Origin: Escherichia coli
GTDB lineage: Bacteria > Pseudomonadota > Gammaproteobacteria > Enterobacterales > Enterobacteriaceae
Assembly: GCF_036507355.1 (NCBI RefSeq)
Contig: NZ_AP027877.1
DNA length: 64,000 bases
Strand: one strand, 5' to 3'
Part shown: positions 8,884 through 30,005 of the stretch, piece after piece
Position numbering within the stretch: the first letter of the stretch is position 1
Layout: each line of letters opens with the position of its first letter
The notes under the pieces: model-generated
Seen by the model: the letters and a program-made list of their open reading frames with translations, nothing else
Told to the model about the DNA's origin: nothing
Databases searched by the model: none
Position numbers and translations under genes: made by a program

Positions 8884-9056
8884 AAAGTTCTTTGACGTTG
8901 CATTGCTGGCGTAAATGTCAGCAATGCAGCATTTCCTCACGATTCTCCTTTGACGATCGCACTTTTTGCTCGTTATGATGGCGTCGCTAGCCTCAGTAAA
9001 TCCTTACTCCGGCGGTGCGCAACCCGTGCGCGTGAACCACTATCTGAATGCTCATC

Positions 9057-29374: not shown

Positions 29375-29482
29375 ATATTCATCCCTGAAATGTATTAATG
29401 AAATAAACGATATTTTACGTGCAATAAATGTTTGGCGCATTAGTTGTTTGAGCGAAAAATATCTGGAAAGCAGATCACAGTA

Positions 29483-29568
29483 AATAAAAAAACCTGCTGG
29501 TGAGGCAGGTTCTTTTATTTACTATTTTCAGGCCTAACACCACAGCCTGTGCAACATCGTGTTCCAAC
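29483..29568 (-). ncRNA. predicted antisense sRNA antitoxin (OrzO-like), roughly 85 nt
   Basis: Minus-strand -10 TATAAT (plus 29575-29580) placing the start near 29568; minus-strand intrinsic terminator (hairpin 29491-29511 plus U-run 29481-29490); its 5' end is complementary to the toxin leader at 29716-29734 (19 nt, 1 mismatch). Confidence 0.5.
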
Positions 29569-29597
29569 GAACGAATTATAACCACGGCTGGACCCCG

Positions 29598-29625
29598 TTG
29601 CAATTAAGATAATGAGATTTATAAT
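29598..29625 (+). promoter_or_regulatory. sigma70-like promoter of the toxin mRNA (TTGCAA-16 bp-TATAAT)
   Basis: -35 TTGCAA at 29598-29603 and perfect -10 TATAAT at 29620-29625; predicted start near 29632 gives a leader of about 175 nt before the ATG at 29807. Confidence 0.5.
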
Positions 29626-29806
29626 CCAGACCGTTGGGACGTTGCGCCGGATCGGACCAATTTTAAGTCCTGGCTACCGGACGGGTGGTGCTGCAGGTGG
29701 TGCCCTGATCCGGAGTGCAACATCGTGGTCCAACATACGTAAACCAGTATCGACAGGCAGTGTAAGGGTAAGGTGCTGGTGTTGCGCTCCTTAATAAGGA
29801 GAGCGG

Positions 29807-29896
29807 ATGGACACGCTGACACAAAAGTTAACCGTGCTCATTGCTGTACTGGAGCTATTAGTAGCTCTGTTACGGTTGATTGATTTGTTGAAGTAA
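29807..29896 (+). CDS. 29-aa hydrophobic type I toxin, ZorO-like
   Basis: Hand translation MDTLTQKLTVLIAVLELLVALLRLIDLLK; strong RBS AAGGAG 7 nt upstream; single predicted transmembrane helix; long structured leader; too short for the ORF track. Confidence 0.6.
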   Translation: MDTLTQKLTVLIAVLELLVALLRLIDLLK

Positions 29897-30005
29897 CGGG
29901 CAAATTGAAACGCATCTAAGGGGGAAAACCGCTTCCCCCTTTAATAAAGCTATACTCGTCATATTTCAAGTTGCATGTGCTGCGACTTGAATTATCTAGA
30001 GTATA

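Follow-up and report, generated by a model that had tools for sequence, protein, structure and literature searches.

Whether the intergenic region between yehL and yehK (positions 29441-30005, 565 nt, of the 64,000-nt stretch of Escherichia coli DNA analyzed here, hereafter the window) harbors a type I toxin-antitoxin module, and how such a module relates to those already described, was the question raised by a sequence-only reading, which had recognized a ZorO/OrzO-like locus at this position. The present analysis leaves little doubt about the first part: the yehL-yehK region of this E. coli almost certainly carries one intact zor-orz type I toxin-antitoxin module.

Toxin and antitoxin genes between yehL and yehK

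The ORF scan detected an open reading frame of 29 codons plus stop at 29807-29896 on the plus strand, with the translation MDTLTQKLTVLIAVLELLVALLRLIDLLK. The exact-sequence look-up in UniProt returned ZORO_ECO57, "Small toxic protein ZorO", for this peptide and ZORP_ECO57 for its T3S variant; as the peptide has A20, it was not ZorQ. The product is a hydrophobic peptide of 29 residues with charged ends, as in the Zor family of E. coli and Shigella, for which NCBIfam holds no model. The Shine-Dalgarno (SD) sequence AAGGAG was located at 29796-29801, 5 nt ahead of the ATG, confirming the 29-codon ORF and ribosome-binding site proposed by the sequence-only reading.

On the minus strand, the Rfam family OrzO-P (RF02083) covered positions 29561..29486 over the full length of the model (1-76) with 99.9 bits against a gathering score of 60 (E = 9e-17). 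Together with the identity to orzP of O157, this match defined an orz sRNA gene of the orzP class of approximately 83 nt (29486..29568), in good agreement with the divergent sRNA of roughly 85 nt that had been predicted. The +1 position was set at 29568 from the published numbering of the specificity triplet V1, where +9..+11 is ACG in OrzP (PMC3919570). The sRNA starts with GUUGGAACACGAUG, and its V1, as defined in the same study, is ACG at 29560..29558 (-). The predicted fold of the sRNA had a free energy of -27.4 kcal/mol (z = -2.8). An intrinsic terminator consisting of a hairpin and a U-run was identified at 29486..29514 (-) by the Rfam consensus structure, the inverted repeat, the terminator scan and the predicted fold; its hairpin is located at 29491-29511, and T-runs flank the palindrome on both strands. 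No second match to RF02083 above the gathering score was present in the 64 kb, so that the window has a single copy. The match of 25 bits to OrzO-P on the plus strand and those to Thr_leader (26 bits), Trp_leader (22 bits) and isrH (20 bits, at 29951-30005) were far below the gathering scores, and were rejected as reflections of the terminator hairpin or of chance.

With regard to transcription of the toxin gene, the consensus scan found a near-consensus promoter, TTGCAA-16-TATAAT, at 29598-29625 (+) with 10 of 12 consensus matches, whose -10 hexamer TATAAT (29620..29625) agreed with Table 3 of PMC11264685. The distance from the end of this hexamer to the ATG was 182 nt. The orz promoter, TTGCAA-17-TATAAT, was located at 29603..29575 on the minus strand, with the -10 hexamer TATAAT at 29575..29580, likewise conserved in Table 3 of PMC11264685. 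The promoter with a long leader and the opposite-strand -10 hexamer and terminator described by the sequence-only reading were thus all found. [quoted passage not shown] Indeed, when +1 was placed at 29633, the leader became 174 nt and the published SD coordinates fell exactly on the AAGGAG sequence. The likely 3' end of the mRNA is the hairpin GGGGGAAAACCGCUUCCCCC followed by UUUAAUAAA at 29920..29948 (+), for which the fold of the 3' region gave -15.3 kcal/mol. This hairpin (29920-29939) is kept in both O157 copies. The terminator scan made no call here because of the weak U-run. The toxin transcript through this hairpin would be about 310 nt, longer than the 270 nt estimated earlier. The 60-codon ORF at 29612-29794 and other short ORFs in the leader were regarded as mechanical, as they start upstream of the mRNA +1 or have no SD.

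The promoter hexamers, the SD and the ORF length in the window equal the published consensus (PMC11264685). Generic scans of the region found two promoters against 1.4 expected and one terminator against 0.6 expected, neither above the shuffled background, and the weight of the identification therefore lies on the Rfam match, the pairing described below and the homology.

The 565-nt region was matched in 5232 of 5426 complete E. coli genomes and adjoined yehL throughout. The toxin-specific part (29667-29950) was present in 3397 of the 5426, at 1-6 places per genome with a median of 2. By subtraction, (5232 - 3397)/5426 or approximately 34% of the genomes would be orz-only. The zor-orz system was predicted in 2010 (Fozo 2010), validated in 2014 (Wen 2014, PMC3919570) and dissected in 2017 (PMC5397157), and a 2024 survey of more than 2000 E. 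coli genomes (PMC11264685) covered copy number, sequence classes and orphan antitoxins. It reported one full copy in 25% of genomes, two in 42%, orz alone in approximately 30%, and the ZorO sequence in 72.5% of zor ORFs. The flanking genes yehL and yehK were those expected for the family. Inspection of nine annotated E. coli loci showed the same neighbors, with the gene at the yehK position labelled hypothetical protein in three. RefSeq/PGAP annotation of zor or orz was absent from every locus inspected. The finding is thus an ordinary instance of an already published system, and the sequence-only reading was correct in recognizing it. It carries little weight as a discovery, and its practical value is in annotation; as RefSeq/PGAP leaves both genes unannotated in the inspected genomes, the scan of the raw sequence worked correctly in recovering them.

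Pairing of the antitoxin RNA with the toxin leader

The repeat finder detected a 25-nt repeat with 88% identity between 29549-29573 and 29715-29739. The 19-mer TGCAACATCGTGGTCCAAC at 29716-29734 and its copy with one mismatch, both pointed out by the sequence-only reading, were real, with the copy located at 29550-29568 instead of 29549-29567, one position off. The 5' seed of the sRNA (+1..+20, GUUGGAACACGAUGUUGCAC; 29549..29568, minus strand) paired with the toxin leader at +83..+102 (GUGCAACAUCGUGGUCCAAC; 29715..29734, plus strand) through 19 of 20 nucleotides in a 6(1)13 pattern, in which the single A.G mismatch was at sRNA +7 (window 29562/29728). The seed-target duplex had energies of -30.8 to -32.7 kcal/mol. 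The value of -32.7 kcal/mol for the seed on the mRNA compared with -16.0 +/- 2.4 for shuffled sequences, and 0 of 1000 shuffles reached it, in support of the earlier claim that the sRNA can base-pair with the leader through its 5' end. When the 64-kb window was searched with up to four mismatches, the target sequence was matched at two places only, in the sRNA gene and at 29715 in the leader. [quoted passage not shown]

These values also bore on the simplest alternative, namely that chance produced both the short ORF and the short repeat in an intergenic region rich in AT. Many ORFs of 20-60 codons do occur in the region, and the scan results not exceeding the shuffled background would suit this explanation. 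It was nevertheless refuted, to the point of having practically no probability, by the identity of the peptide to a curated toxin, the Rfam E-value, the pairing that no shuffle equalled and the conservation in thousands of genomes.

The functional rule reported for this family calls for 15 or more continuous or 17 or more discontinuous pairs (Wen 2014, PMC3919570), a threshold that the 19 discontinuous pairs in the window exceed. In the same study, full repression of zorO was obtained with an OrzO mutant of the 6(1)11 pattern, in which the mismatch is placed identically. As no direct test of OrzP on zorP was found in the searchable literature, repression by the P-class pair rests on this pairing rule.

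Covariation between seed and target was analyzed in 12 full modules from ten E. coli intergenic regions, comprising four seed/target classes. Wherever the V1 triplet differed between classes, sRNA gene and target had changed together (CGT/CGT, TTC/TTC and GGC/GGC, plus strand). Cognate combinations had 19 of 20 nucleotides paired, a longest run of 13 or 18 and about -30 kcal/mol; non-cognate combinations had 15-18 of 20 paired, runs of at most 9 and -14 to -25 kcal/mol. Such covariation is the pattern expected from selection on pairing with classes insulated from each other. The insulation of O versus P was shown experimentally by Wen 2014 (PMC3919570), and the 2024 survey (PMC11264685) concluded likewise. 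As an additional observation, three of the four natural classes retained the internal mismatch at sRNA +7 despite differing flanking bases, and continuous pairing (18 nt) occurred in the O class only.

Relation to the O157:H7 and K-12 loci

The sequence-only reading had proposed an alignment with zorO-orzO of O157:H7. In the O157:H7 strain H2495, the spacer of 1240 nt holds two tandem modules, so that the likeness to O157:H7 held for the position of the locus, but not for the copy number, which was one in the window. The family assignment also stood, but the nucleotide class was P. The whole module was 98.1% identical to the O157 P copy and 88.4% to the O copy; for the sRNA, the values were 100% and 76.5%. 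Among the 61 sites distinguishing the two O157 copies, 53 were P-type in the window. According to the V1 definition of Wen et al. (PMC3919570), OrzO has GAA and OrzP has ACG; the locus had V1 = ACG with the target triplet CGU, and not the GAA with matching target that marks the zorO/orzO subclass.

The remaining eight O-like sites were scattered (29632, 29655, 29659, 29664, 29686, 29813, 29949 and 29950). One of them gives ACG (Thr) as codon 3, and the peptide thereby becomes ZorO instead of ZorP (Ser3). As V1, the target triplet and the 53 P-type sites all pointed to P, the locus was assigned to the zorP/orzP class by RNA, with a peptide of ZorO sequence. The same combination of P-class RNA and ZorO peptide was found in the strains E105 and 2022H047. 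The peptide-based O/P naming and the naming by RNA specificity hence do not coincide, since this single copy has P-class RNAs and yet encodes the ZorO peptide. An origin by recombination between O157-type P and O copies was considered and rejected, as no switch point was found and K-12 shares several of the O-like sites. From the alignments, the eight sites look like SNPs of the O157 lineage in its P copy plus the expected 3' flank of a single copy.

When compared with zorP-orzP of O157:H7 EDL933 (Z3290 side of the tandem; Fozo 2010, Wen 2014), the window has a 100% identical sRNA with V1 = ACG and the same leader target, 6(1)13 pairing, promoters, SD, terminators and yehL-proximal position. 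The differences are Ser3 (TCG) there versus Thr3 (ACG) here and four leader SNPs at 29655, 29659, 29664 and 29686. Furthermore, as the window has a single copy, its 3' flank matches the sequence next to yehK, which in the O157 tandem comes after the O copy. The window shares with zorO-orzO of O157:H7 (PMC3919570, PMC5397157) the identical 29-residue toxin and the architecture, comprising the 174-nt leader, the SD hairpin, the EAP region and the divergent sRNA with a 5' seed. In contrast, V1 is GAA in zorO-orzO and ACG here, 7 of the 20 target positions are different, and the O pair forms 18 continuous pairs versus 6(1)13 in the window. Cross-pairing between the window and the O157 O class was predicted to reach 16 of 20 nucleotides with runs of at most 9, and OrzP did not repress zorO in experiment (PMC3919570).

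The earlier statement that the system is absent from K-12 was true of the toxin and most of the leader. K-12 nevertheless keeps the orzP gene, both promoters and approximately 30 nt of the leader; the deletion begins at approximately +30 of the leader and stops shortly before yehK, and the target, the SD and the toxin ORF are gone. This orphan antitoxin has been published as OrzPmg and is expressed in K-12 (PMC11264685). The orz-only locus of K-12 MG1655 aligned with the window over the sRNA gene and both promoters and adjoined yehL likewise, differing by the loss of target, SD and toxin ORF. In the aligned sRNA gene, the seed, the V1 region and the terminator were identical between the window and K-12.

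The persistence of orzP with intact promoters in toxin-less genomes (the orz side in 5232 of 5426 genomes, the toxin side in 3397), together with a K-12 copy that matches the window in seed, V1 region and terminator and is expressed (PMC11264685), is what would be seen if OrzP were a trans-acting regulator with its main targets outside the locus and control of the toxin were secondary or historical. We consider this improbable but worth keeping in mind. Against it, the cognate target is present in the window as the sole complementary site in 64 kb, the seed and the target covary between classes as selection on zor pairing predicts, and no other target is known. Such a function would be at most an additional role and not a replacement for the control of zor by OrzP, the reading that we prefer.

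Two features of the K-12 locus were noted besides. The deletion junction (L002, positions 1435-1740; window ~29662/~29985) starts beside the +28 processing site, and the intact zor promoter now points, in antisense orientation, into the 3' end of yehK.

Leader structure, divergent promoters and proposed mechanism

Within the 174-nt leader, the first 28 nt (29633..29660, +) correspond to the segment removed by processing of zorO (delta28; PMC5397157), as judged from that study and the predicted folds. The EAP region (+73..+102), a putative ribosome standby site, was transferred from the coordinates of PMC5397157 to 29705..29734 (+); it contains the conserved motif GGAGTG (PMC11264685) at 29712-29717 (+). 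A hairpin at 29785..29805 (+) was predicted to sequester the SD by pairing CUCCUU with AAGGAG, corresponding to the SD stem probed in zorO (PMC5397157). In both the MFE and centroid folds of the full-length leader, +1..+27 was paired with the EAP region (+1..+5/+98..+102, +9..+14/+84..+89 and +15..+27/+62..+81), and in the centroid fold of delta28 neither the EAP region nor the sRNA target was paired. The duplex between the 5' 28 nt and the EAP region had an energy of -27.8 kcal/mol. The long leader, its SD held in a stem and the EAP region with the target inside it thus matched the published coordinates exactly, the folds being predictions only. As the folds were no more stable than those of shuffled sequences (z = -1.5 for full-length and -0.1 for delta28), the structural model rests on the published probing of the O copy; the predicted folds are consistent with that probing and mechanism and do not constitute independent proof.

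The 5' 28 nt of the mRNA (-27.8 kcal/mol) and the sRNA seed (-31.0 kcal/mol) were predicted to pair with the same EAP nucleotides, which suggests that the unprocessed mRNA 5' end may act like a built-in copy of the antitoxin seed. Both the toxin mRNA and the sRNA begin with GUUGG and contain GUUGC. A mirror duplication of the two arms about the -35 hexamer was rejected, since the global alignment score was reached by 455 of 2000 shuffles, and the motifs common to both arms were only the -35, the -10, GUUGG and GUUGC.

The sRNA gene is divergent from the toxin gene and does not overlap it, and the two promoters stand back to back, as expected for the family, with the -35 hexamer in common. According to the consensus scan and PMC11264685, the palindromic TTGCAA at 29598..29603 is the -35 of both, with spacers of 16 nt to the zor -10 and 17 nt to the orz -10. 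The survey lists TTGCAA as the -35 for zor and orz with identical conservation figures (PMC11264685), and in the zor-orz papers, which list the hexamer for both, no discussion of its sharing was found. As one hexamer serves both promoters, RNA polymerase could engage it in one direction or the other, but not in both at once. Initiation of zor and orz might then be mutually exclusive on each DNA molecule, forming a transcriptional toggle on top of the known post-transcriptional control. Taken together with the persistence of orzP in strains that lack the toxin, this idea could point to an independent life of the sRNA arm. These two ideas, for which no discussion was found in the zor-orz papers either, are speculative and in our estimation quite unlikely to hold; the evidence obtained here is compatible with them and gives them no support.

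In the mechanism that we propose, two sigma-70 promoters would fire outward from the single TTGCAA. The rightward transcript of about 310 nt, starting at 29633, would carry the 174-nt leader and encode the 29-residue inner-membrane toxin equal to ZorO, and the leftward promoter would produce from 29568 the sRNA of about 83 nt identical to OrzP. The full-length mRNA would be poorly translated, since a hairpin holds the SD and the EAP region is occupied by the first ~28 nt, and loss of the 28 nt would expose this putative standby site and boost translation. The first 20 nt of the sRNA would pair with +83..+102 of the EAP region in the 6(1)13 pattern, block standby loading and trigger RNase III-dependent decay, thereby keeping the toxin off.

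The observations on the present locus concern sequence identity, Rfam membership, the significance of pairing, covariation, consistent predicted folds and genomic position. For O157 zorO-orzO, membrane localization has been shown; toxicity, rescue by the sRNA and RNase III dependence have been reported (PMC3919570), as have 5' processing of zorO, the exposure and standby role of the EAP region and, by structure probing, the location of the SD in a stem (PMC5397157). By analogy, the P-class RNA pair of this strain would be expected to behave in the same manner, a transfer based on the identity of both the peptide and OrzP and on a duplex above the tested threshold.

The mechanism presupposes expression, and the module could instead be a silent relic, intact in sequence but unexpressed and without effect in this strain. 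Chromosomal zor-orz in single copy is not known to have a phenotype; the published effects on aminoglycoside tolerance come from multicopy constructs, and the lack of RefSeq annotation of both genes in all inspected loci would fit such a relic. We regard this as very improbable, given that the -35, the -10, the SD, the 29 codons and the pairing are all intact and at the population consensus, that the elements showed at least 99% conservation over 2439 loci in a published study, and that in O157 both RNAs have been detected as products of the native locus (PMC3919570). An active zor-orz module therefore remains the preferred reading.

The tisB-istR1 and shoB-ohsC systems, which are further divergent type I loci of E. 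coli, resemble zor-orz in having a divergent sRNA that pairs through about 20 nt far upstream of an occluded SD and in the activation of a standby site by 5' processing (PMC5397157), although their toxins and RNAs have no sequence relation to those of zor-orz. Moreover, tisB is under SOS control, and the zor mRNA can, in contrast to tisAB, still be translated weakly in its full-length form (PMC5397157).

Several minor observations were made on the surroundings of the module. The sRNA terminator (29479-29523) is a palindrome with 19-nt arms and T-runs on both sides that could stop transcription both ways. In the direction of the sRNA, the start codon of yehL (29374) follows 112 nt downstream of it, and read-through of the sRNA would consequently enter the yehL operon on the same strand. 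Elsewhere in the window, a Peptidase-S11 RNA motif (8972-9052, +; 72.8 bits) and a TPP riboswitch (53857-53953, +; 71.2 bits) were above the Rfam gathering score. Among the neighboring yeh genes in other strains, pseudogenes were annotated for yehM, with an internal stop in O157:H7 H2495 (L001, positions 1-1335), yehI, frameshifted in MLI023K2 (L004, 2234-3155), and yehK, frameshifted in 1105 (L005, 2014-2330) and muskdeer13-4 (L007, 1790-2106). An extra insert of 70-150 nt, which the window does not have, was located between the zor 3' hairpin and yehK in the strains 1105, muskdeer13-4 and 2022H047 (L005, L007 and L009). It spans approximately columns 614-790 of alignment A2 and is bordered by repeated CTGCGACT(T/G). 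Part of this insert (…CACCCCTGTCACTTACTTTAGTAAGCTCCTGGGGATTCAC…) presumably resembles the ERIC/IRU intergenic repeat.
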